From: Naegleria gruberi
Taxonomy: Eukaryota
Assembly: GCA_000004985.1 (NCBI GenBank)
Contig: GG738850.1
Strand: one strand, 5' to 3'
Length of the DNA stretch: 64,000 bases
The notes under the pieces are model-generated. The model had not been told where the DNA came from. It saw nothing but the letters and a program-made list of their open reading frames with translations, and did not search any database. Within the stretch, counting starts at the first letter, position 1. Each line of letters opens with the position of its first letter. Shown here piece after piece: positions 16,488 through 54,258 of the stretch. A program made the translations under genes and the position numbers.

Positions 16488-18926
16488 ATGGTGACTCATG
16501 TACAGAAGAATAAGATATTAACTGAGGCGCAAGTCCTTAATACCTCCTTGACACAATCAAAGGAAAATGTAGTAATAAGCAAGATGCTCGAAGAACACAA
16601 ACAAAATAATGAAGCAAAACTGTTACAACTAGAGACGGGTAAAAAGAAGAGTATCATCAAGTCATTCATCTCACGTGTATTCTCTATCAAACTTTGTCTT
16701 TCTCTGATTATTATGTTATTGATTATTATTTCCACAATATCAATTTTTGTTGCTACGATTGTTTTGCAAGGTAAGATAACTTCATCATTTTTATCCTTAA
16801 TAATAATAATTATTATTATTAATACTATGCAGGCGCATCCATTGATGAATCAACACAAAAACTAGGAAATCAAATCAAGCTTAGAGCTGCTGAATATTTA
16901 AATAACTTTATTAGATATCCATTCCAAATTACGGAGGGTATTGTCAGAAGAATATCAAAATTAGATAATTTGAGCCCTGATATGGATGACTGGGGAAGGA
17001 GAATTGAAGAATTAATTTCTAGTGTTGCAAGCTTTGAAATCAGCTATGCTTCTTTCTTAGCAGATGATTATTTCTTTGGTGTTTCAAGAAACACTGATTC
17101 CCCAACACTTACCTATCAACTGGAATACTATTCGAATGGCATGTATTATAAGCCAATATATTTGGATAAGAACTTTGACTATACACTGACTAAAGAACAA
17201 AAAGGAACAATGTCGATGGACATATTTGAATGGTGGACAACTGCAAAACAAACCAAGAAGAAGAGTTTTAGCAAATTGTATGCCACAAACAAGAGCTCTG
17301 TTTGGCTTACTGCCTCTCATCCTGTCGTTAATGCAACCACAGGAGAGCTTGCATATTTAATTACAACAGATCTTACAATGCTCGACCTTAGTTCATATTT
17401 GGAAAGTATTGTAATCAGTCCTAATTCATATATTTATGTCATTTCAGCAGCAACATCTGAAATGATTGCATGTTCTAAATCATCAAACGAAACATTATAT
17501 GTTTACAATACTCTTGCTCCACAACATCTTGAAAGAAAGAGGTTGTATGAAAGTTCAAATCATATAGTTAAAGCTGTTGGTGAAACTTTACGTAAAAAGT
17601 ATAATAACAATCTTCAAAATTTTACAGGTACTGAAAGAGTAGTGGTGGATGGAAATACGTATCTTCTTAACATGGTAGCTGTTGAAGACAAGCTCAATTT
17701 AGGGTTGAATTGGAATGTTCTTGTTATCATGTCAGTAGATGACTTTATGAGTTCTGTCTATCTAATCAGAAATATTGTGCTGATAGCTGATGGTGTTATT
17801 TTGTGTTTGTCTTTAGTTATTGCAATTGTTGTCAGTATGTTGATCACAAATCCTCTTGTTTCTCTTGGAAATGATATGGATGCTCTTGGTAAAGGCGAGT
17901 TCAAGGTAATGAAAAAGAAAAAATTGATTCTTTTCCATGAAGTCAAAAAGCTCAGAAACCACTTCTCTAAAATGTCATCTGCAGTTGATGGTTTCATGAA
18001 GTATGTTCCAAGAGAAATTGTCTCCTCTTTCATTGGAAGTGATGCAAAAACTTTCAAATTGGGTGTTGAATCAAAGCACATTGCTATTCTCTTTTCAGAT
18101 ATCAAGAACTTTACAACTATTTGTGAAGCAACAGAACCAACTGTTTTGATTACTATTCTTGGAAAATATTTTGAATTGACTTCAGAAGTTGTATATAGAA
18201 ATAGGGGAGTTTTAGACAAGTATATTGGTGACTCTTTGGTAAGTTTGACTAATTTGATTTAAATCTAATAAGAGTTTGTAGATGGCACTCTTTGGTGCTC
18301 CAGATACCTATGAAAATTATGTCTTTCATGGTTGTAATGCAGCTTTTGAAATGCAAACAGCTCTTCAACCATACAATGATCAATTACATAAGGAGGGAAG
18401 AGATACATTGTACACTAGAGTTGGAGTTAGTTGTGGAGATGTTTTGGTTGGTAACATTGGTTCATCATTTCGTTTGTCCTATACTTGTTTGGGAGACTCT
18501 GTCAATCTTTCTTCGAGATTGGAAGGTTTGAACAAGGTATATGGAACAAATATCATGGTTTCTGAATTCTGCTATGAAATTGTTAAAGACCTCTTCCTGT
18601 TCAGAACTCTGGATGTGGTTGCTGTCAAGGGTAAAGTGAATGGTGTTAAGGTGTATGAAATTGTTGGTAGAAAGTGGTCTCCCTTCCAAGGTGATTCTGT
18701 CACTGTTTCTCAAGAAAGGGTTGAATATTGTAGAACATACAATACTATTATTGAAGATTTGTACTTTAAGAAAAAGTTTGGTGTGGCTGAAAAAGCATTC
18801 AGAGATTTTGCTGATAGGTATGAGCAAGATTCAGCAGCTCTTGAAATGGCTTACAGATGCAGAAGCTATGTAAATAATCCTCCTCCAGATTCTTGGAATG
18901 GTGTATATTTTGCAAAAGACAAGTAA
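16488..18926 (+). CDS. Membrane-anchored class III adenylate/guanylate cyclase. Three exons: 16488..16770, 16833..18238 and 18282..18926.
   Basis: Exon 1 encodes an N-terminal TM segment (LCLSLIIMLLIIISTISIFVATIVLQG). Introns: GTAAGA...TGCAG (16771-16832) and GTAAGT...TGTAG (18239-18281). The cyclase core spans the second intron (FSDIKNFTTICE...YIGDSL | MALFGAPD...VSCGDVLVGNIGS...YTCLGDSVNLSSRLEGLNK). A second TM lies before the catalytic domain. Confidence 0.8.
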
Positions 18927-19062: not shown

Positions 19063-21682
19063 ATGCTAAATCAATTTCAACAGATTTTTCCGACCAATAC
19101 ACCTCGTTTTCATCCACATATTCATCCACAACATCGAAATGATCCACCAGAGGGTACAATAGAATTTTCCAAACTCATCCAATCCGTTGGCAATCACTTT
19201 ACATTCAACTCGGAGTATTGCAGTGTAGAGCAAATAATTTCACATCATCATGATGAGTCTACCGATTCGACTATTATCGTTTCACAATGTAGGAGACCGT
19301 TTTCATGTTCATGTGTATTTAAAGTGATTCGACGAAGGGTAACAAATGGTCAGGATGAAAATTCAGATATTTCAAAATATAATTCTGCAAAATTTAATGC
19401 CGTGGATAATAATCAAAATCCTAATTATGTAATAAGGGAATTTGAATATAGGAGTGAAGATGGAATGGAGCTATGGAAGGAATATGTCATTGTTTCTAAA
19501 TATTATGGAGAATCTCTGTTTAGAATGATGAGGAGTCGTCGTGCTGGAATTGCTGAGGATATTTCTGTAATTTTCATGTTGAAAGTAATTTGTTCATGTT
19601 TGGAAAAGTTGGAAAATTTTCATTTGAATGGAATAGTTCATTGTAATGTGGAACCTTCGAATATTTTTAAAGGTGATGATTTAAATATCGAGTTGGGCGG
19701 TTTGGGTTGTGTTCAATTATCAACTAGAAATCCAGGAGTATTGGTTGATTGTAAAGGATTTTTGAAATGGATGCCTAAAGCATTTGTTGCACCTGAAGTT
19801 CAAACTAAACAATTGATTGGGCTTAAAAGTGACATTTGGAGTTTGGGAATGGTCTTGTTAAGGTTCTTATTTCCAAATCTAGTAAATCTTGTAGTCAGTG
19901 ATTCCAATATTGATGAGATATTTAAAGGTCTATCCAATGTAGAAAGAGATGATGCTTGTTGGAATGAAATTAAGAATTTAATCAAATCAATGCTAACAAT
20001 TGATGTGAACAAAAGACCAACCAGTGGACAATTATTGAATACCATAACTAATGGTAGTCGTTTTAGAGATTCTGCTGAAACATTGACGAAATGCTTTAAA
20101 GAAAATCGAGGTGTTGCTCTTCACCTTTGTAAATTTAATTATGGCTCTTTCAAATACCTGGAATCATTTCATAGTGATAGAGAGATGGCCCTCAAGTATA
20201 ACGATTCTTTCCAGTATATGGATGAGGCTTTTCTAGATGATAGGGATTTCATATTGGAAGCGGTAAGAATAAATCCCTACCTGGTGGACGAATTGGAAGG
20301 AATGGATTTGCTAGATAGAGAGATACTTGAGGAGGCTATCAAGGCAGATGGAGAAGTAATGAGTGGACTAGATGAAAAATATCTATTAGATAGAGAGCTA
20401 GCTCTTTTGGCTGTCAGACAAAATGGCCTAGCTCTAGAACATATTGCTAATTATTTTGGTGATGATGAAGAGGTAAGAAGTGTAAACATTCATTATTTCT
20501 AATGTCAAACTTAAGGTTGTTTTGGAGGCTATTAAGAACGAAGGACGTGCCATTGAATTTGCCTCAGCGAGATTGAAGCGTAACAAGAAACTTGTTTCAA
20601 TGGCCCTTAAAGATAATCCAATGGCATTAAATAATATTGATCAAGAGGAATTCGGGTTGGAAAGTGATGATGAAAGTATTTTTCATTCTGGTGGTGAGGA
20701 AGATAAGGGCAATGAATTTCTAAATCCACAAATTATATGTATTAGTGGAGGTTTCATGAGCAACCAATACGGTAATATGGAGTTTTCCCCTCAATTACCA
20801 CGTTTCAATAATTCTCCTCAAAATATTGGCCTATTGCAAAATAAGCATGAGATTATTAATGCAGTAACAATGGATGGTTTACTATTGCAACACATTCCAG
20901 AAGTATTTAAAAACGATGAACACGTGGTAATTAATGCAGTTCTAGGGAATGCAATGGCTCTTCAGTATGCCTCCCCTATTTGGCGAGATAATGAAACTGT
21001 TGTTCTGACAGCTATTAGAAAAAATGAATCTGCCCTTCAATTTGCCTCTCCCAGGTTGAGAAATTGTAAAAAGTTTTTAACTTGTGCCCTTAGTATTAAT
21101 GGATTGACTTTGCAATATATTGATCCATTACTTATAGATGAGGAATTAATTGTGGTTGCTGTAACTCAGAATGCACGTGCACTTTTATACACTCCCAACC
21201 AATTGAAAACTAAACATGTTGTCATGCAAGCTGTATCTCAAAATGGACTGGCTCTTGAGATGGTTCCATCAATGAACAATGATAGAGAGATTGTTGGACA
21301 AGCAATCTGTCAAAATGGATTGGCCTATAGGATGGCTTCTGATACTTTGAAACAGGACCAGTCATTATTTGCTCTTGCATTGAAAGGAAGAGGTGATAAT
21401 TTGGCAGCAATTTACTCCAAGACAACCCATAACCACCAACAGGACAGTTTATCAGTCTTTATTCAATTTCTAGATATTATCAGAGAGGCACCAATTGAAC
21501 TATTGAGTGATACTCGATTTGTTAAGGAAAGTGTGAAAAATGCAGCATTTCCATTCTACCCAAATTTCAACCTTGATGACCAGATAGTTATGAATATCTG
21601 TAGAAATAATCAAGTTAATATTAAGAGGAAACATTATGGTGAGGAAGGTGTAGTAGAAAATCCAACCAAACGAAAAAAGTAA
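19063..21682 (+). CDS. Protein-kinase-like (probable pseudokinase) domain fused to C-terminal DUF4116 repeats. Two exons: 19063..20472 and 20516..21682.
   Basis: The kinase-fold region has a degenerate catalytic loop (IVHCNVEPSNIF instead of HRDLKPENI), GGLG in place of DFG, and APE retained (FVAPEV). These are followed by about 12 tandem repeats of roughly 35 aa of the DUF4116 type (LALQYASP..R.N...VL.AI..NG.AL...). The GTAAGA...TTAAG intron (20473-20515, phase 0) falls inside a repeat. Confidence 0.7.
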
Positions 21683-23297: not shown

Positions 23298-23327
23298 AGA
23301 ATTCAAATTCAACAAACTTTGAAAAAA

Positions 23328-23690
23328 ATGGATTCAAATTATCATAACGTTTGCCACAGAGGATGTATGATTGATATTATTGATCGGGAGTGGATGATGG
23401 ATGTACTTCCAAATGATGATATTACTATTATTTTACCAAATGATAATTCATCTAAAAATCCAATTCAAAATACATTGTCTCAACTCACGAATAACCATCC
23501 GAGCCTGGCAACTCATCCTCTCTTTGTTGAAGATGGAGTGGCTATTGCTGATATGAAGGATAATTCAATACTCGGAGATAATCACTTGCAAGGAATTGAT
23601 AGACCACCAAGTGAATTTGTTCATCATGTAAATGAATGGAATGATTTAAATCTTTTCAGTTTACTGGAGAGACAAGACGAAACGGATTAA
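23328..23690 (+). CDS. Small acidic hypothetical protein of about 120 aa with an N-terminal CHRGC motif
   Basis: ATG at 23328 after ttgaaaaaaa (the track start at 23319 is TTG). No recognisable domain. Confidence 0.35.
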   Translation: MDSNYHNVCHRGCMIDIIDREWMMDVLPNDDITIILPNDNSSKNPIQNTLSQLTNNHPSLATHPLFVEDGVAIADMKDNSILGDNHLQGIDRPPSEFVHHVNEWNDLNLFSLLERQDETD

Positions 23691-23778: not shown

Positions 23779-24264
23779 TTATTGATTGTAGCGACAAAAC
23801 AAATTCTTCTCGGTGGCATAAAGTTTTGTGTACATTTTAGCCATTGAATTGAATCCTCTATCATCATTATTTCTAATTAAATTTCCAGCATCACAATTTA
23901 ATGGTGAATCGGAACCTTCCTTTGGATTAGACATCATTGATACAATAGCCCTACAAACATTTAATAAAGTCCAAACAGGGCTCCACTTATCCTTCAAAAT
24001 ATCCATACATATTTCTCCACTTTCAAAATGTACATTTGGGTGAAAGATTTTAGTAATAAATTCAACTTTTGGTGCAGAAATTGGATATTCTTTCGGAACT
24101 TGAATTTTTAATTCGAAAACACCATCCTCATAACAAGTTCCCTTTGGTCCAATGCATTTTGCATACCACAAATAAATATTATTTTCATCGGGTTGAAGAA
24201 CAAGATCAGCCTGATTGGCTTTTTGGATCTCGTTATATTCCTTCATGATTCGTTTGCTTGCCAT
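23779..24264 (-). CDS. Ubiquitin-conjugating enzyme E2 (UBC fold), resembling the peroxisomal E2 PEX4
   Basis: HPNVHFESGEICMDILKDKWSPVWTLLNVCRAI carries the UBC active-site motif (HPN...GxICxDIL...WSP). The C-terminal SPLNCDAGNLIRNNDDRGFNSMAKMYT resembles the PEX4/UBC21 type. ATG at 24264. Confidence 0.8.
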   Translation of the reverse strand: MASKRIMKEYNEIQKANQADLVLQPDENNIYLWYAKCIGPKGTCYEDGVFELKIQVPKEYPISAPKVEFITKIFHPNVHFESGEICMDILKDKWSPVWTLLNVCRAIVSMMSNPKEGSDSPLNCDAGNLIRNNDDRGFNSMAKMYTKLYATEKNLFCRYNQ

Positions 24265-24455: not shown

Positions 24456-26179
24456 ATGCTGTGTCCACCACTCGATTTTCCAAGGTTGCAAAAAAATATG
24501 ACGACCACGAATCGACCTTCTCGTGGGCGGAAGAAGATTCCAAGGTATGTGCTCGGGCATTTATTAATTTTTTCATCTTCATTATCTATTGTGTGATGAT
24601 ATCATTCTGTATTATTAAAATAGTGCATCCTATTATTTGGGCTATGTTGAAGATGATGAATCAATAGAGTCAATTATGCAAAAGTTCGACGAATTGGAAA
24701 AATTAAAATCATCAAATCTTTCGGAATGTGCTGCTTCTTCATCGTCATCTAAAAGTATGGTGAATGGAAAAGGGAAAGAACCAGCAGAAACAACATTGGA
24801 TGGAGGAGCAATTACACCACTTGAAGAAGATTCCTATCTCAATGAAGAATTGCAAGAGGAATTGTTTAAAAGAACTTCACATCATTCCATTCAATCAAAT
24901 ATTTACTCAGAAATTATGTCAAACTATAATACTGAACAAGGTGAATTGGATGAGATGGATGATGGTGATGGACAGGAGGCTTCTGATTATTCTTCTGATG
25001 AGGATTATGTTGATAATTTTCAAGATGGAGAATCTGATGGATCAACTGAGGAGAATTTGAATATTTGTGTGAGTGACAGTGAAATTGTCAATGAGGAATC
25101 CTTTGACGAAGAAGAAGAGGAGGAAATCATTGATGATGAAGAATCTAGTAGAGCTAAAAAGAAGAGAAAATCCAATCAGACCAATGGAAGGAAACGAAAC
25201 ACTCAGAAAAAGGGTGATAATACTATCAAGGATTTAGTCACACTCGATCCAAATATGAACTTTTTGAATTCATTTGAAGGAAATTCGACGACCAACTCAA
25301 AGAAATCCAGAGCTACCAGCAATATAGAAATTGTAAATATTCCAACAGCAGAGAAAATACTCAATTCCTGGGCTAAACATATACAAAGAGTAACACCAAA
25401 GGAATGTAAAAAATATAAGGCATACAGTGAATGTCAAACAATTGATTTGACCAATTTTGAAGAAGATTTATCAGGAAAATTAATGTTTAATAGAACTAAC
25501 TCAAAGAAATCATCAACCTTTGTATCAAGTGTATACACATTCGATACTGAAGAGGATGTAATCATAACGAACCGAGTTTTAGATTATAATTTTAAATCGA
25601 TATGTAAAAATCAGCCGTTTGAGGGGATTTTAATTGATCCACCCTATCACTCAATACAAGTGAAAGATCTGGTATGTAATCTCAGTAATCTCAACATTGT
25701 AATCTTAACAATTGTAATTTCGGATAATTAAGAAAAAATTACCACTCGATAAGAAATGGTTCATAGAGAGAGGTTACTGTTTTGTATGGATTGAAAAGGA
25801 ATTTACAGTTGAAGTTGTTAAAATAATGAAAGGATTTGATTTTGAATATGTAGATAGTTTAACTTGGGTTAAAGAAACCATTCATCAACATTCCTCAACA
25901 CTCCCATCTCAATTATTTCCCAGAGGCAAGTTGAATCTATTCATCTTTAGAAAGATGAATGATCTCACTAAAACCATGCACATTAAACACCAGAGAAATG
26001 CAGATGTGGTTCTTGATTTTGAAAAGGACAACCCACGACACAGACCACCAGTCATATTTCACATGATTGAAACTCTATTATCATCTTCTGATAGATTTTT
26101 GGAATTGTGGGGAGAAGGTTGTTATCAACATTGTAAATTCAAAACATCCTCTAAATGGACTATCATAAAGGAAGAATAG
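24456..26179 (+). CDS. MT-A70-family N6-adenine methyltransferase with a long acidic N-terminal region. Three exons: 24456..24544, 24624..25671 and 25733..26179.
   Basis: The ATG at 24456 in frame 0 gives phase-consistent splicing: GTATGT donor at 24545 and AG acceptor at 24623; second GTATGT donor at 25672 and TTAAG acceptor at 25732. The track GTG-start ORF in another frame cannot be spliced in phase. The catalytic region spans intron 2 (EGILIDPPYHSIQVKDL | KKLPLDKKWFIERGYCFVWIEKEF...ELWGEGCYQHCKF), i.e. the DPP[WY] motif followed by the MT-A70 GY/CFxW block. The middle 250 aa are Asp/Glu/Ser-rich low complexity. Confidence 0.6.
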
Positions 26180-26597
26180 AATATAGATATAGATTCATAT
26201 TGTAACAAAGGGAGTTGTTTTTGAACATTCCAGTGTTGCATCTTTAATTGATAAACATGTAAAGTTTGTCTAGGTTTGACTCCGGAAGAATAGGATATCA
26301 TACATTTTTAACTCACGCACTTTTTCGTTTTGTCATTTATCAGCATTACTCCTCAAACCACACTGCCATTTTCAATTCTCACCTCCAATACCGTAGTAAA
26401 CGAATCATTACGAAAATCGAGTCATCATTTTCAGAAAAAAAAACAAGAAGAACATCAACTGGTGGCACACACTAAAGCTGCTGCACTTGCAAAAAACATC
26501 TACAAAGGCTTTCAACAAGTCGCACTCGAATCTTCCGCTTCTTTAGAAAACAACACAAAACCTTCACATTCAAATATTATTTGAAAACAATATCGAT

Positions 26598-27350
26598 ATG
26601 AAAAAGTATACAGTTTCAGCATCACTGAGTAGAGAAGATGAAAAGGATTTCTTTACTACTAAGAAAGTCAATTCAACCACTGATGATTTTCCAGAGTCAA
26701 CTACAACATCATCAATTTATAATAACAAACAGAGGAGAGGAATTGTTCATCGATCACAAACTCAATTACAGGCCAACAAGCAAGTACAAATAATAGAGGA
26801 ATTAAAAGAAGAAGAAGAAGAACCAGCAGAAGAAGAAACTGTACAGAACAAACAAACTACAAGACCAATAGGTATTAAAACAACAACTATAATAGAACCT
26901 TCATCTGTCAATGATAGTGCAGAGAATAGTATTTCAGATGCGAGCGTTGTTTCCTCAGTTGCTGCTAGCAGTTTATCATCTAACACATCTTCATCTGTTG
27001 CCTCATCTGTGGAATCAAATCCAAGTTCTTCACCAATTATTAAAAAGAAAAAATTCACATTTGGAGGATTAATCAAGAGAAAACAAAATGCTGATAGTGA
27101 TGCATCTAGTCCAAATGCCAATGGTTCAGCCTCTCCTAACCTCAATGATTCCCCTAATTCTACATCTACCACTAATTTTGAATCCAATTCCCTTCCAAAA
27201 CGACCTCAAGTCATCAGTGTAAATGATGGCAGTGATTTTAGGAAAAAGTTACAAGATAGAAAGAGAAATGCAGGTGGAACTGGTATGAAAATTGTCAAAC
27301 AAAATGATCAACTTATCGTATCTCAAAACAATTCAACTCTAGAAGAATAA
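26598..27350 (+). CDS. Ser/Thr/Asn-rich low-complexity hypothetical protein, 250 aa
   Basis: ORF with ATG at 26598. Ser-rich tracts (SVVSSVAASSLSSNTSSSVASSVESNPSSS), a KKKKFTFGGLIKRKQ basic patch and an acidic EEEEEPAEEE stretch. Weak coding evidence. Confidence 0.35.
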   Translation: MKKYTVSASLSREDEKDFFTTKKVNSTTDDFPESTTTSSIYNNKQRRGIVHRSQTQLQANKQVQIIEELKEEEEEPAEEETVQNKQTTRPIGIKTTTIIEPSSVNDSAENSISDASVVSSVAASSLSSNTSSSVASSVESNPSSSPIIKKKKFTFGGLIKRKQNADSDASSPNANGSASPNLNDSPNSTSTTNFESNSLPKRPQVISVNDGSDFRKKLQDRKRNAGGTGMKIVKQNDQLIVSQNNSTLEE

Positions 27351-32073: not shown

Positions 32074-34920
32074 TTATTGTTTTTGTTCTTCTGTTTTCTT
32101 TTCTTCTTCAGCCTTCTTCTTTGCTGCTTCTTCTTCCTCTAATTCCTTTTGTTGGAAATCTTTGGTCTTCAAATAAGCATCGAATTGAGCATCATTACCA
32201 AATGGTCTATGACCGAGCACATCAACCATGTCTTGCGCATCAATCTTTTCCTTTTCCAGTAATAATTTGGCAACTGAAACCATACCATCTTTGTGTTTCA
32301 TCAAGAGTTCTTCAGTTCTTTGATAAGCTTCAACAACCATTCTCTTAATTTCATGATCAATTAATCTAGCTGTTTGGGCACTGTATGGTTTTTCAGCTTG
32401 GAATCCATCATTTGTATCTGGGAATGAAACGTTACCAATCTTATCACTCATACCATACTTAGTAATCATTTGACTGGCAATTTCAGTGACCTTTTGTAAA
32501 TCGTTTTGAGCACCAGTTGACAAGTGACCGAATATTATCTTTTCAGCAGCTCTACCACCAAGAGCAAGACACATAAAGTCAAATAATTGTTCCTTTGTAG
32601 TAATATATCTTTCTGATGGAAGGTATTGAGCATAACCCAAAGCACCTGAACCTCTTGGTACAATGGAAACCTTCAAAAGTGGGTCAGTATGTTCCAAATA
32701 CCAACCAGCAACAGCGTGACCAGCTTCGTGGTGAGCAACAATGTTTCTTTCTTCTGGAGATAAAACCTTATTCTTCTTTTCCAAACCACCGATAATCTTA
32801 TCAATAGCTTGTTCGAAATGACGCATTGTAACATGATCAGATCCTTCTCTAGATGCAATAAGAGCTGCTTCGTTACAAACGTTAGCAATATCAGCACCAG
32901 AGAAACCTGGAGTAAGAGTAGCAAGACGAGTAGCGTATTCCTCTGCTGGTTTAGCCAAAACAATACCCTTCATGTGAACCTTGAAGATTTCTTCTCTACC
33001 CTTAATGTCAGCAATTGAAACATCAATGGATCTATCAAAACGACCAGGTCTTGTAAGAGCCTTATCCAAAATTTCAGATCTGTTTGTAGCGGCCAAGACA
33101 ACTACACCAGTAGCTGGAGTAAAACCGTCCATTTCAACAAGCAATTGATTGAGAGTATTTTCTCTTTCATCGTTTCTACCCATGAATTTACCTGTGCCTC
33201 TTTGTCTACCTACAGCATCAATTTCATCAATGAAAATAATAGATGGAGCATTATCCTTAGCTTCTTTGAATAATTTACGAACTCTTGCTGGACCAACACC
33301 AACAACCATTTCAACAAATTCAGAACCGGAAATACTATAGAATGGAACACCAGCCTCACCAGCAACTGCCTTTGCCAACAATGTCTTACCAGTACCTGGA
33401 GGACCAACAAGCAATGCACCCTTTGGAATTCTAGCACCAATATCTCTGAACTTCTTTGGATTCTTCAAAAAGTCGACAAATTCTGTAATTTCTCTCTTGG
33501 CTTCATCGAGACCAGCAACATCTTTGAATTTTACAGAGTGTTGAGATGTAGCCTTAAATGATTTGGTGAACATATTAGTTGGATCCATAGCTCCTAAACC
33601 ACCACCTCTTCCTGGCATTCTCTTGTAAGCATAGTACAATAAACTACCAATAATGAGCAAATGAATAGCTGCTTGAATGGTTTGAGCAAAGTTCTTTTGT
33701 TCCTTTCCTGAATAGAAAATTTCAATACCAGAAACTTGAACACCATTTTGGTGCATTTCTTCCAATAAATCATAATATCTTCTTTCAAAGCTATCACCAC
33801 CAAATCCAATGCTGTATTCTCTTCCTTCCTTTGTTGTGACTGTTGTAGAGCGTTCAAGAATAGTGATCTTACGAACGTTTTGAGTTCTCAAATCTTGACT
33901 GAAATCATCAAAAGATGCTGTATAACCAGTTCCTTGATGTAATTGTTGGTATGAAGTGGCAATCATGATCAAAGTGACGAAAAGCATACCATAGAACATG
34001 TAGTCCAATACGCTCATTTTTGGTTTGTCTTTTTCTTCTCCTGATTCTTGCTTTACTGTTTCAGTTTTAACTTCTTCCTTTGGCTTAATCGTACCCAATT
34101 TCAAGTTTGAATGGACAGATTCTCCTTTTTTGACCTCGTGTGAAATAATTTTACCCTTTTCGGCAGCTCTGACATTAATTCTTTGAGGAGTATCTTCATC
34201 TGTATATTTGACTTCAATTTCAGCAATAACTTCACCTTCAAAAACTTCATCTTCAACAAATTTGAACCATTTGTTAATGTATGCGCTTTCAACATTATCT
34301 CCCAAGTGTGGAACAGTAATATCAATTTTAGCTGGCTTCTTTTCCTTCTTTTCATCATTTTCTTTTTCTTCCTTGTCCTTCTGTTCCTTCTTTTCTTTCT
34401 TTTCTTTCTTTTCTTTCTTCTCTTCAGATTTCTTTTCGGAAGTCTTTTCCTCCTGTTCAACTTTTTCTTCAGTTTCGGAAGTCTTTTCCTCCTTCTTTTC
34501 TTCCTTCTTTACTTCCTCTTTTTGATCCGATTCAGATGATTCCTTTCGTTTAAAGTTACCAAATCCTTTTGGTGTTGAATAGAATCTTTTAGATACAAAA
34601 TTGGTCAATACAAAGTTGATGTTTTTCTTAGAGAAAATATTTCTTTCTGTTTTTCTAGACAAAGGATATGAACTCTTTTCACTAGTATTAATATATTCAA
34701 TATTTCCGTATGATGAAAGATATTCTTGTTGGAATGATGGAAGACGATTAATTACAGCCATAATATTCTTAAAAGATGAATATCTTAAATTAAATAAACC
34801 ATTATTACTATTCACTAATCCACTTCTTTCCCATAATTTTTCAGCCCAAGCAGGTAAGTTGATTCGATTCATCAACGAACCAGCCTGCAAACCCACGGCC
34901 TTCATTTGTTGTTGGAACAT
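32074..34920 (-). CDS. Mitochondrial m-AAA protease (FtsH/AFG3L2/Yta12 family) with a Lys/Glu-rich N-terminal extension, 948 aa
   Basis: AAA+ Walker A (GPPGTGKTLLAKAVAGEAGVPF), Walker B (IIFIDEIDAV), second region of homology (ATNRSEILDKALTRPGRFDR), zinc-metalloprotease HEAGHA, and two TM segments flanking an intermembrane-space domain. N-terminal presequence-like start. The 34100-34540 region encodes an EKKEEKK low-complexity tract. Confidence 0.9.
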   Translation of the reverse strand: MFQQQMKAVGLQAGSLMNRINLPAWAEKLWERSGLVNSNNGLFNLRYSSFKNIMAVINRLPSFQQEYLSSYGNIEYINTSEKSSYPLSRKTERNIFSKKNINFVLTNFVSKRFYSTPKGFGNFKRKESSESDQKEEVKKEEKKEEKTSETEEKVEQEEKTSEKKSEEKKEKKEKKEKKEQKDKEEKENDEKKEKKPAKIDITVPHLGDNVESAYINKWFKFVEDEVFEGEVIAEIEVKYTDEDTPQRINVRAAEKGKIISHEVKKGESVHSNLKLGTIKPKEEVKTETVKQESGEEKDKPKMSVLDYMFYGMLFVTLIMIATSYQQLHQGTGYTASFDDFSQDLRTQNVRKITILERSTTVTTKEGREYSIGFGGDSFERRYYDLLEEMHQNGVQVSGIEIFYSGKEQKNFAQTIQAAIHLLIIGSLLYYAYKRMPGRGGGLGAMDPTNMFTKSFKATSQHSVKFKDVAGLDEAKREITEFVDFLKNPKKFRDIGARIPKGALLVGPPGTGKTLLAKAVAGEAGVPFYSISGSEFVEMVVGVGPARVRKLFKEAKDNAPSIIFIDEIDAVGRQRGTGKFMGRNDERENTLNQLLVEMDGFTPATGVVVLAATNRSEILDKALTRPGRFDRSIDVSIADIKGREEIFKVHMKGIVLAKPAEEYATRLATLTPGFSGADIANVCNEAALIASREGSDHVTMRHFEQAIDKIIGGLEKKNKVLSPEERNIVAHHEAGHAVAGWYLEHTDPLLKVSIVPRGSGALGYAQYLPSERYITTKEQLFDFMCLALGGRAAEKIIFGHLSTGAQNDLQKVTEIASQMITKYGMSDKIGNVSFPDTNDGFQAEKPYSAQTARLIDHEIKRMVVEAYQRTEELLMKHKDGMVSVAKLLLEKEKIDAQDMVDVLGHRPFGNDAQFDAYLKTKDFQQKELEEEEAAKKKAEEEKKTEEQKQ

Positions 34921-52950: not shown

Positions 52951-54258
52951 ATGGCTAGTCATGATGAGGAAGTTTACATTGCTGAATTTTATAGTGGTAT
53001 CGGAGGAACAAGAATGTCTCTTGAAATGATTCAAGCCTTTTTTGAGGCACAAGTAAATGGAAAGAAAATTAAATTTAATTGGATTGAAGCTTTTGATATT
53101 AATGAAAATGCAAATACTCTTTATAATAATTTATTTAATCACAAACCATGTGCAAAGGATATTGTGCATATTCCTATTGGTGATTTTCAAAATCATTATT
53201 TTAAATTATTTAAAAATTCATCATTGGAGCAAGCAAAGAAGAAATTAAAAACTGAACAAACAAGAAAATTAATGTGGACCATGTCTCCTCCTTGTCAACC
53301 ATTTACTTTGAACGGAAATAGAAAAGATAGTGAAGATGATAGGTCTAAGAGTTTTCTCTTCTTGATGGCAGATTTATTTCCTCAAGTTCTACCAGATTAC
53401 ATTTTTGTGGAAAATGTAAAGAATTTTGAAATATCTAAAACAAGACAACATTTAGTGAATCAATTGGAAAATTTTGGATACAAGTATGAAGAATACTTGA
53501 TTTGTCCAACACAATTAGGACTTCCAAATCAGAGAGTTAGATACTATTTAATTGGAAAGAGAGTAGCTAATATTACACCTCCATTAGAAAAAACAGAAGA
53601 GCTTAGAGAAATACCATTACATCTGATAACAGATCCACCAAAAACTATTTTAAGAGATCAGGAGCCTTTACGACCAAAAATTGATTTTGAGAGCTCATAT
53701 GGAAAAGAGAAAATTCTACAATTAGGAGCAAAGTTAATCGACTTGTATGATTTAAATTCTATTTTACTCACACCTGGGGAAGAGAAAAAATACCAAACTG
53801 ATATGATTTATTTGAACGAGAAAAATATAACAAAAATCAAAGGTTACAGATACGACCTAATTTTCAAAGATCCATATGGAAAGAAGAATTTAACACCAAT
53901 CAAATCTGAGTGTAGTTGTATCACAAAATCATATGGTCAAGTTCAATTCCTTAGAGGAACAGGACCTATAGTATTGATTCTTGATGAAAATCAAATGTTA
54001 GATATTGATTCTAATGAAACCATTTATAAGAAAATTGATTTTGAAAATCCAGTAGAAACCATGATGCCACTTGGAAAGCTTCGATTTTTACATCCAATTG
54101 AGGTATCACGACTAATGACATTTGTTCCTTGGATAATGAACAACACAGGCAAACTTACCGTTAAGCAACTTTACAAGTTGATGGGAAATTCTGTTAATCC
54201 AATTACTCTTGCAAACATAATTTATTTACTATTTTCAAGTGATTCATTTTTGGCTTAA
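52951..54258 (+). CDS. DNMT2: tRNA (cytosine-5)-methyltransferase DNMT2/TRDMT1
   Basis: C5-MTase motifs in canonical order: motif I (FYSGIGG), motif IV (SPPCQPFT), motif VI (ENVKNF) and target-recognition CFT-like elements. It matches Dnmt2 in having no N-terminal regulatory region. ATG at 52951 after aaaaaaaa. Confidence 0.85.
   Translation: MASHDEEVYIAEFYSGIGGTRMSLEMIQAFFEAQVNGKKIKFNWIEAFDINENANTLYNNLFNHKPCAKDIVHIPIGDFQNHYFKLFKNSSLEQAKKKLKTEQTRKLMWTMSPPCQPFTLNGNRKDSEDDRSKSFLFLMADLFPQVLPDYIFVENVKNFEISKTRQHLVNQLENFGYKYEEYLICPTQLGLPNQRVRYYLIGKRVANITPPLEKTEELREIPLHLITDPPKTILRDQEPLRPKIDFESSYGKEKILQLGAKLIDLYDLNSILLTPGEEKKYQTDMIYLNEKNITKIKGYRYDLIFKDPYGKKNLTPIKSECSCITKSYGQVQFLRGTGPIVLILDENQMLDIDSNETIYKKIDFENPVETMMPLGKLRFLHPIEVSRLMTFVPWIMNNTGKLTVKQLYKLMGNSVNPITLANIIYLLFSSDSFLA

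Follow-up and report, generated by a model that had tools for sequence, protein, structure and literature searches.

A likely AMT6/AMT7 (MTA9)-type partner protein of the MT-A70 family in Naegleria gruberi, hidden by a chimeric public gene model

Naegleria gruberi carries, within a 64,000-nucleotide stretch of contig GG738850.1 (NCBI GenBank assembly GCA_000004985.1; this whole stretch is hereafter called the window, and its G+C content is 33%), a gene of the MT-A70 family of adenine methyltransferases at positions 24456-26179 on the + strand. The window's best protein match, at 100% identity, is an N. gruberi entry, and the DNA is nuclear. The locus raises the question of whether a protein with a formally complete catalytic motif IV, Asp-Pro-Pro-Tyr (DPPY), itself methylates adenine, or whether it serves another protein that does. 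A preliminary description of the window had put it forward as a candidate writer of N6-methyladenine (6mA) in DNA or of N6-methyladenosine (m6A) in small nuclear RNA (snRNA). We propose with good confidence that the locus encodes instead the orthologue, in N. gruberi, of AMT6/AMT7 (MTA9), a pseudo-enzyme that would pair with AMT1 (MTA1) and grip and open ApT sites in DNA by means of a His-Gln-Arg (HQR) loop.

The gene has three exons that can be joined in phase to encode a product of 527 amino acids (aa). Exon 1 (24456-24544, +) supplies aa 1-29 plus two nucleotides (nt), with the basic N-terminus MLCPPLDFPRLQKNMTTTNRPSRGRKKIP. It is followed by intron 1 (24545-24623, +; 79 nt, GTATGT...TAG, phase 2, GT donor at 24545 and AG acceptor at 24623), retention of which would bring in a stop codon at 24594-24596. 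Exon 2 (24624-25671, +; aa 30-379) encodes N-terminal helices, an acidic disordered tract, a basic patch, an IP..WAK motif and the first part of the MT-A70 domain, which includes DPPY. Removal of intron 2 (25672-25732, +; 61 nt, GTATGT...AAG, phase 0) joins ...ILIDPPYHSIQVKDL to KKLPLDKKWFIERGYCFVWIEKEF...WGEGCYQHC...KEE-stop, and exon 3 (25733-26179, +) contributes aa 380-527 and the TAG stop codon. The catalytic motif had been described as split by an intron; in fact intron 2 lies eight codons 3' of DPPY, between motif IV and the next strand.

Comparison with other Naegleria genomes supports this structure. From 'RPSR..SSYYLGYVEDDE' to 'KWTIIKE' the N. gruberi protein aligns collinearly with its orthologues from N. 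lovaniensis (P0002, 517 aa) and N. fowleri (P0196, 528 aa), and the codon boundary of intron 2, after '...DPPYxxIxVxDL', is identical in N. lovaniensis, where the intron measures 94 nt, and in an N. fowleri-like contig. Intron 1 occurs only in N. gruberi and does not interrupt the orthologues. Exon 1 is supported by the alignment of its 'RPSR' and 'KK(I/V)PS' stretches with the N-termini of both orthologues, and the same exon appears in the NCBI model. A second in-frame ATG at 24498 (M15) aligns with the orthologues' Met and may, judging from this alignment, be the true start rather than the ATG at 24456. Both N. lovaniensis and N. fowleri keep the order Apc13 - E2 - MT-A70 - Ser-rich gene - Ras/Roc, and exon 3 alone scores 116 bits against an AMT6/7 hidden Markov model (HMM). 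Since the orthologues are collinear, the position of intron 2 is shared, gene order is syntenic and the downstream Ser-rich gene is separate, the three-exon model is, on this comparative evidence, correct and the public model wrong. The preliminary description had arrived at the same three exons and at the ATG 24456 frame, and had called for a check of the splice junctions, for which genome comparison now provides support; it was also right that the GTG-start open reading frame (ORF) at 24461 cannot be joined in phase to exon 2.

The public model, XP_002681350.1 (EFC48606.1, NAEGRDRAFT_46356, UniProt D2V3A9; 646 aa), shares exons 1 and 2 with ours. It then treats 25672-26546 (+) as an intron of 875 nt, a false one that swallows exon 3, the real last exon, and leads into the next ORF, a Ser-rich gene at 26598-27350 (+) that is wrongly fused to it. 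By tblastn this Ser-rich gene is a separate next gene in both N. lovaniensis (43% identity) and N. fowleri; it has no Pfam match. XP_002681350.1 is a chimera of two genes in which the MT-A70 domain is obscured, and it has no Pfam domain on record. In Supplementary Table 1 of a recent phyletic survey based on the NCBI proteome (Romero Charria et al., Nat Genet 2025, PMC12695648), N. gruberi has one AMT1, one AMT2/5, no AMT6/7 and none of METTL3, METTL14 and METTL4. In the taxon list for that study's tree, the N. fowleri orthologue XP_044569262.1 appears and XP_002681350.1 does not. The AMT6/7 score of zero would be most simply explained by the chimeric NCBI model. The corrected gene model fills a gap in the published table; the gene is otherwise unremarkable within a known family.

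The MT-A70 fold domain occupies aa 340-527 (25552-26176, +, interrupted by intron 2) according to Pfam, AlphaFold2 and Foldseek, and its family assignment in the preliminary description is confirmed. Residues 370-506 match the Pfam MT-A70 profile (PF05063) with a score of 35.5 bits (E=1.2e-8; cut-off 23.9), no other Pfam domain was found in the 527-aa protein, and AlphaFold2 confidence over blocks of the domain (predicted local distance difference test, pLDDT) is 65-97, mostly above 85. Foldseek matched MTA1, METTL3 and MTA9 structures in the PDB at E-values of 1e-15 to 1e-12, a result that we used for the fold only and not for clade assignment. Sequence comparisons place the protein more precisely. 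As a single sequence in phmmer it matches Paramecium MTA9 at 1.6e-10, Tetrahymena MTA1 at 4e-5 and METTL3 at 0.15. A family profile built from the N. gruberi protein and 18 homologues matches AMT7/MTA9 at about 1e-45 (160 bits), AMT6 at 1e-43 and MTA1 at 1e-25, with the RNA-writer types far behind: METTL3 and METTL14 at about 1e-14, and plant METTL4 at 4e-3, METTL4 being set aside solely by such weak profile scores. The protein scores 137 bits with an AMT6/7 HMM built without Naegleria and 50.6 bits with an AMT1 HMM.

A neighbour-joining tree on BLOSUM-score distances with 500 bootstraps gives the same answer. Its input comprised the domain, 19 other AMT6/7-type sequences (among them three ciliate PDB chains transcribed from HMMER output), 12 AMT1 domains, and human METTL3 and METTL14, both verified against the PDB; METTL4, AMT2/5 and bacterial sequences were left out. 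The AMT6/7 group including Naegleria received 100% support, as did AMT1, and a grouping of Naegleria with AMT1 received 0%. On this profile and tree evidence the gene is a member of the AMT6/7 (MTA9) clade, and not METTL3-, METTL4- or AMT1-like. Phylogeny, a check recommended in the preliminary description, places the protein in the MTA9 clade, away from AMT1/MTA1, METTL3 and METTL14, with METTL4 disfavored by the profile scores just given. The AMT1 reference sequences came from a search of an index of 5.8 billion proteins with a Tetrahymena MTA1 fragment; the best 120 matches listed were nearly all short, partial and mostly metagenomic, and no Naegleria AMT1 was among them. A scan of the whole window with the AMT1 and AMT6/7 HMMs found no second MT-A70 gene and no AMT1.

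Does a protein placed in this clade retain the means to bind S-adenosylmethionine (SAM)? In Tetrahymena MTA1 (TthMTA1) the SAM contacts D182, D209 and N360 are essential, and R357, N359, N370 and E371 also take part (PMC9174199). At the SAM-contact positions of the alignment the N. gruberi protein has R347, D368, E507 and E526 and no RxNN, and only the Asp of DPP (D368) is kept. R347 stands at the position of D182, where the four Naegleria-lineage sequences have R, N, N and D. The AMT1 loop 'FGRRNN' is replaced by 'WGEGCYQHCK' (ELWGEGCYQHCKF...), 'GNEL' is replaced by 'IKEE' at the ...WTIIKEE end, and 15 aa are missing from gate loop 1, which forms a wall of the adenine pocket in MTA1. Neither RxNN nor GN[EQ] occurs in any of 156 diverse family representatives drawn from a scan of 1.84 billion proteins (the motif counts below were made over 141 or 142 of them), including 24 with a perfect DPPW. 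The set of features that marks a catalytic AMT1/MTA1, namely DPPW, the SAM contacts and a full gate loop 1, is not found in the protein. Lacking the SAM loops of AMT1 (RxNN, GNE) as well as the larger part of gate loop 1, the protein is most likely a pseudo-enzyme despite its DPPY. Ciliate MTA9 does not bind SAM, and mutation of its pseudo-site has little effect (PMC9174199).

At the place where AMT1 has the SAM loop RRNN, after the ELWG strand, the Naegleria proteins alone carry a six-residue insert, GCY(Q/K)HC (26112-26129; aa 508-513). We considered this insert as a metal site and rejected the idea, since a metagenomic relative has GSYLNC.

Motif IV itself (25636-25647, +; aa 368-371) reads DPPY, as first reported, and is fixed across the Naegleria lineage in the five proteins or contigs examined; it is not degenerate as in the ciliate pseudo-enzymes. 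The Tyr had been regarded as typical of prokaryotic beta-class enzymes; in the family it is instead a minor variant of the clade's own DPP[W/L/F/Y]. Among the first 74 family members D-P-P is at least 90% conserved, with a fourth residue of Leu in 58, Phe in 4, Tyr in 3 and Trp in 2, and over 141 diverse representatives Trp occurs in 77, Leu in 39, Phe in 15 and Tyr in 5. Since most representatives (97/141) have an aromatic fourth residue, a degenerate motif IV does not define the clade: the ciliate NALW, NIKW and DNLF and the fungal DPPL are, on these alignments, lineage states. DPP[WFY] is present in 39 of the 141 representatives and [DNS]PP[WFY] in about 55. Tyr is rare in the clade, and four of its five occurrences belong to the Naegleria lineage. 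The library representative P0262, outside the four Naegleria-lineage sequences, also has DPPY together with a short gate loop. As far as sequence comparison can tell, DPPY points neither to bacteria nor to catalysis.

The intact motif nevertheless invites the alternative that the protein itself catalyses N6-adenine methylation of DNA, whether on its own or as a second catalytic subunit next to AMT1, working through DPPY and a non-canonical SAM site. The conservation of DPPY in all five Naegleria-lineage sequences speaks for such an activity, and the level of D-P-P conservation in the first family sample, together with the [DNS]PP[WFY] count, looks like constraint on the motif. We nonetheless consider it unlikely, given that the MTA1 essential residues D182 and N360, along with R357, N359 and N370, are missing or variable, that gate loop 1 is almost deleted, that no family member has RxNN or GN[EQ], and that the ciliate MTA9 pseudo-site is both unable to bind SAM and largely insensitive to mutation. 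A related and equally doubtful idea is that AMT6/7 in Naegleria, and in the many lineages outside ciliates and fungi that retain DPP[W/Y/F], is not a dead scaffold: its motif IV pocket might bind the flipped base of the partner strand (parental 6mA or displaced T), making it the hemimethylation 'reader' half of a maintenance enzyme, or might transfer methyl groups via a non-canonical SAM site. More generally, the coexistence of an intact-looking DPP[W/Y/F] with complete loss of the SAM loops calls for caution in naming MT-A70 'writers' from motif IV alone.

The residues through which an AMT6/7 protein would hold DNA are, by comparison, well kept. H465-Q466-R467 (25988-25996, +), in the beta5/beta6 loop or 'wedge', is homologous to H379/Q380/R381 of Tetrahymena MTA9; HQR is found in 140 of 142 family representatives and is invariant in the 19-sequence family alignment. 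In that alignment F451 and IETL are invariant or nearly so, and R452 is at least 90% conserved in the 74-sequence alignment. F451-R452 and HQR place the MTA9 DNA-wedge and p1-contact positions in the N. gruberi protein. Structural and mutational work on Tetrahymena MTA9 gives these positions a meaning (PMC12485025): H379 stacks on the flipped-out thymine and also contacts p1, Q380 enters the duplex as a wedge adjacent to the parental 6mA, the backbone is bound by R381 and R366, and E376, R378 and H379 contact p1. The corresponding MTA9-B mutants have their activity abolished or sharply reduced (PMC12485025).

The N-terminal 339 aa had been described as low complexity with a 250-aa acidic spacer. 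A strongly acidic part does exist, in that aa 136-195 are 43% Asp plus Glu with no Lys or Arg, but the region also holds conserved modules. Helix module 1 (YYLGYVEDDESIESIMQKFDELEKL; 24631-24738, +; aa 33-68; consensus 'YxGYVEDxESxExIMKKFEELE') has an invariant M48, and G36, Y37, V38, E39, D40, K49, K50, F51, E53 and L54 are each at least 90% conserved over 74 members; AlphaFold2 predicts a helix at 44-68, the block pLDDT is 75-87, and identity to N. lovaniensis and N. fowleri is 66%. Helix module 2 (EELFKRTSHHSIQSNIY...; 24844-24939, +; aa 104-135; consensus 'EELFKRTSxF'), also a predicted helix over aa 104-135, has an invariant T114, at least 90% conservation of F111, K112 and S115, and 69-80% identity to the same orthologues. 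The IP..WAK motif (IEIVNIPTAEKILNSWAKHIQ; 25324-25386, +; aa 264-284; consensus 'IPxxxxxxxxWAKxI') keeps P270 and W279 in at least 90% of the 74 members. Taken together, the three modules have 43-80% identity to N. lovaniensis and N. fowleri. Between them, the acidic and predicted-disordered tract (24940-25143, +; aa 136-203) has a pLDDT below 50 and identities of 20-32% to the two orthologues and 47% to the metagenomic P0003.

The KKKRK patch noticed earlier as resembling a nuclear localisation signal is indeed present at aa 208-212 (25156-25170, +) and identical in all four Naegleria-lineage sequences. A basic cluster stands at the same place in the fungal proteins, and a basic run aligns there in Tetrahymena AMT7; the patch is a putative nuclear localisation signal or DNA-contact patch. 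The three N-terminal modules are common to the non-ciliate AMT6/7 proteins of Heterolobosea, fungi, Amoebozoa and green algae, and are left uncovered when the profile is aligned to ciliate AMT7/MTA9 chains in the PDB. In Tetrahymena, short N-terminal helices of MTA9 touch MTA1's substrate-binding loop (PMC12485025), and by analogy the Naegleria modules may contact the substrate loop of AMT1.

These features fit a model in which AMT1 (MTA1), AMT6/7 and the Myb/homeobox-like p1 together would place 6mA at ApT sites of double-stranded DNA (dsDNA), on both strands. The C-terminal MT-A70 domain of the Naegleria protein would heterodimerize with AMT1 and help to build the DNA-binding platform, while the HQR loop would insert at the opened ApT site, hold the displaced bases and the backbone, and touch p1. 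The N-terminal helices would probably position the substrate-binding loop of AMT1, and the KKKRK patch would probably drive nuclear import. Methyl transfer would be carried out by AMT1 and not by the AMT6/7 protein, and DPPY would be a retained structural remnant of motif IV instead of a working active site. Gene structure, clade membership and the kept and lost residues come directly from our analysis, and AMT1, p1 and ApT-6mA in N. gruberi, as well as the residue roles in Tetrahymena, come from the literature; that the protein forms a heterodimer and lacks catalysis in Naegleria is inferred.

Published data provide the partners and the substrate. AMT1 is reported from both N. gruberi and N. 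fowleri and p1 from Naegleria, and about 3% of the genes of each species, 644 in N. gruberi, are reported to bear 6mA at ApT (PMC12695648). The N. gruberi AMT1 is either XP_002672452 or XP_002681700. Yeast two-hybrid assays with proteins of the fungus Rhizopus show binding of Mta9 to Mta1, and Mta9 is essential in that fungus (PMC12019607). Sequence conservation points to selection on the gene: domain identity is 70-71% to N. lovaniensis and N. fowleri and 62% to the metagenomic P0003, compared with about 20% in the linkers, and the ORFs are intact and syntenic. Of the role first suggested, the connection to DNA 6mA holds up, and that of writer most likely does not, given the AMT6/7 placement and the lost SAM contacts. 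The choice of substrate, which had been left open, has become less so, because the complex of this clade methylates ApT dsDNA and both ApT 6mA and AMT1 have been published for N. gruberi (PMC12695648).

Several points weigh against a role as the non-catalytic partner of AMT1. Motif IV is formally intact, DPPY being a canonical N6-adenine motif that is fixed across the Naegleria lineage, and no current pseudo-enzyme model explains the strong conservation of D-P-P in the clade. The loss of SAM binding is deduced from alignment only, data on binding or activity of AMT6/7 being confined to ciliates. Fold comparison by Foldseek fails to separate the subfamilies and ranks MTA1 chains slightly above MTA9 chains. 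The presence of the partner in N. gruberi is taken from PMC12695648, the Supplementary Table 1 of which scores N. gruberi AMT6/7 as zero. Finally, only about 3% of Naegleria genes carry 6mA, and the complex may work differently or weakly there.

A role as an m6A writer or writer-partner for mRNA or snRNA, of the METTL3/METTL14 or METTL4 type, was raised by the preliminary description and draws on the common MT-A70 fold, with METTL3 reached by Foldseek at about 1e-13. We consider it highly improbable. The METTL3 and METTL14 scores are 30 orders of magnitude weaker than those for AMT6/7, METTL4 is barely detected, and tree support for the AMT6/7 clade is complete. Moreover, the protein has neither CCCH zinc fingers nor a METTL14-type RGG tail, N. 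gruberi is scored without METTL3, METTL14 and METTL4 (PMC12695648, Supplementary Table 1), and the MTA1 complex (MTA1c) is inactive on RNA and on DNA-RNA hybrids (PMC12485025). That the locus is a decaying, non-functional relic or a gene-prediction artefact, as the faulty and domainless public model and the sparseness of 6mA in Naegleria might suggest, is hardly credible in view of intact, syntenic and collinear ORFs in three Naegleria genomes, a kept intron position, a domain identity of 62-71% across the lineage against about 20% in the linkers, and the preservation of all family-invariant residues.

The reading of the locus as an AMT6/7 orthologue completes the expected AMT1-AMT6/7-p1 set in N. 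gruberi, a deep-branching eukaryote (Discoba) in which ApT 6mA was recently measured.

As the preliminary description noted, the window also contains a DNMT2/TRDMT1-type C5-methyltransferase gene, which we locate at 52951-54258 (+), 27 kb from the MT-A70 gene, as a single ORF of 435 aa. GIGG, SPPCQ and VENV (C5-methyltransferase motifs I, IV and VI) are present, PF00145 matches at 93 bits, and comparison with the PDB gives DNMT2/TRDMT1 at E=3e-40 and M.HhaI at 2e-10. The ORF exceeds the solved DNMT2 chains (327-348 aa) in length by about 90 aa, implying insertions between the conserved motifs. We rejected a functional link of the MT-A70 gene with DNMT2 or with its neighbors, the latter being ordinary housekeeping genes and the former 27 kb away; the co-occurrence with this unrelated tRNA-type C5-methyltransferase gene is without evident meaning. 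Upstream of the MT-A70 gene lie an Apc13p-like ORF (23319-23690, +) and a ubiquitin-conjugating (UBC) E2 gene (23779-24264, -), the start of which is about 190 bp from that of the AMT6/7 gene, the two genes being divergent. Two adjacent ORFs at 19063-20502 and 20522-21682 (+) contain DUF4116 repeats, the first together with a protein kinase domain and the second with five repeats. An FtsH-like AAA/M41 protease of 948 aa (32074-34920, -) has an N-terminal biotin/lipoyl-type match (23.5 bits against a Pfam cut-off of 22.1), an unusual combination, and the ORF at 16970-18262 (+) combines the start of an adenylate/guanylate cyclase domain with a sub-threshold match to a bacterial-type PDC sensor like those of methyl-accepting chemotaxis proteins (MCPs).

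Among known systems, AMT1/MTA1 shares with the Naegleria protein the MT-A70 fold, DPP[W/Y], the 'G(F/Y)xFxW' and 'ELF/ELW' strands, and it provides the best Foldseek match. The Naegleria protein differs from it in having no QHAKE(T)CL, RRGQSQKP, FGRRNNLR or GNEL, and profile searches detected no counterpart of the AMT1 helical domain that binds p1 and p2. METTL14 is a functional analogue, being an MT-A70 pseudo-enzyme with an altered motif IV (EPPL) that scaffolds METTL3 and binds nucleic acid. It belongs, however, to another clade (E of about 1e-14 to the family profile) and to an RNA-directed complex, and the residues by which MTA9 contacts DNA are not conserved in it (PMC12485025).

The ciliate AMT6/AMT7 proteins (MTA9 and MTA9-B; PDB 7f4s_D, 7yi8_A, 8xyl_B, 9u92_B and 9o6k_A) are the best match by sequence and profile and fall in the same clade with 100% support. 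Shared with them are the HQR loop, the FR(K) strand, 'RHQRxxDxxFD', 'IETLLP' and the C-terminal 'W(T/I)(T/S)(V/I)', as well as the lack of AMT1-type SAM loops and an N-terminal region that is charged and disordered and contains short helices. Naegleria has lost nearly all of gate loop 1, as has Paramecium MTA9 but not Tetrahymena AMT6/7. Differences include DPPY where the ciliates have NALW, NIKW or DNLF, the six-residue insert after ELWG in Naegleria only, and a methyltransferase domain without the large insertion of AMT7 (about 130 extra residues). Relative to AMT7/MTA9, Naegleria also has the two conserved N-terminal helices and the IP..WAK motif that those profile-PDB alignments leave uncovered.

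Fungal Mta9 (for example Rhizopus microsporus Mta9_A and Mta9_B; PMC12019607) and related proteins from early-diverging fungi, Planoprotostelium and Chlamydomonas are collinear with the Naegleria protein over their full length. The fungal-type proteins have 25-30% identity to it over more than 90% of its length and are, by tree distances, closer to Naegleria than the ciliate proteins are. The fungi have DPPL (compare EPPL in METTL14) and a full-length gate loop of about 15 aa, where Naegleria has DPPY and a loop of 6 aa. The architecture common to Naegleria and fungal-type Mta9 runs from the N-terminal helices through the acidic tract, the basic patch and the IP..WAK motif to the MT-A70 domain.

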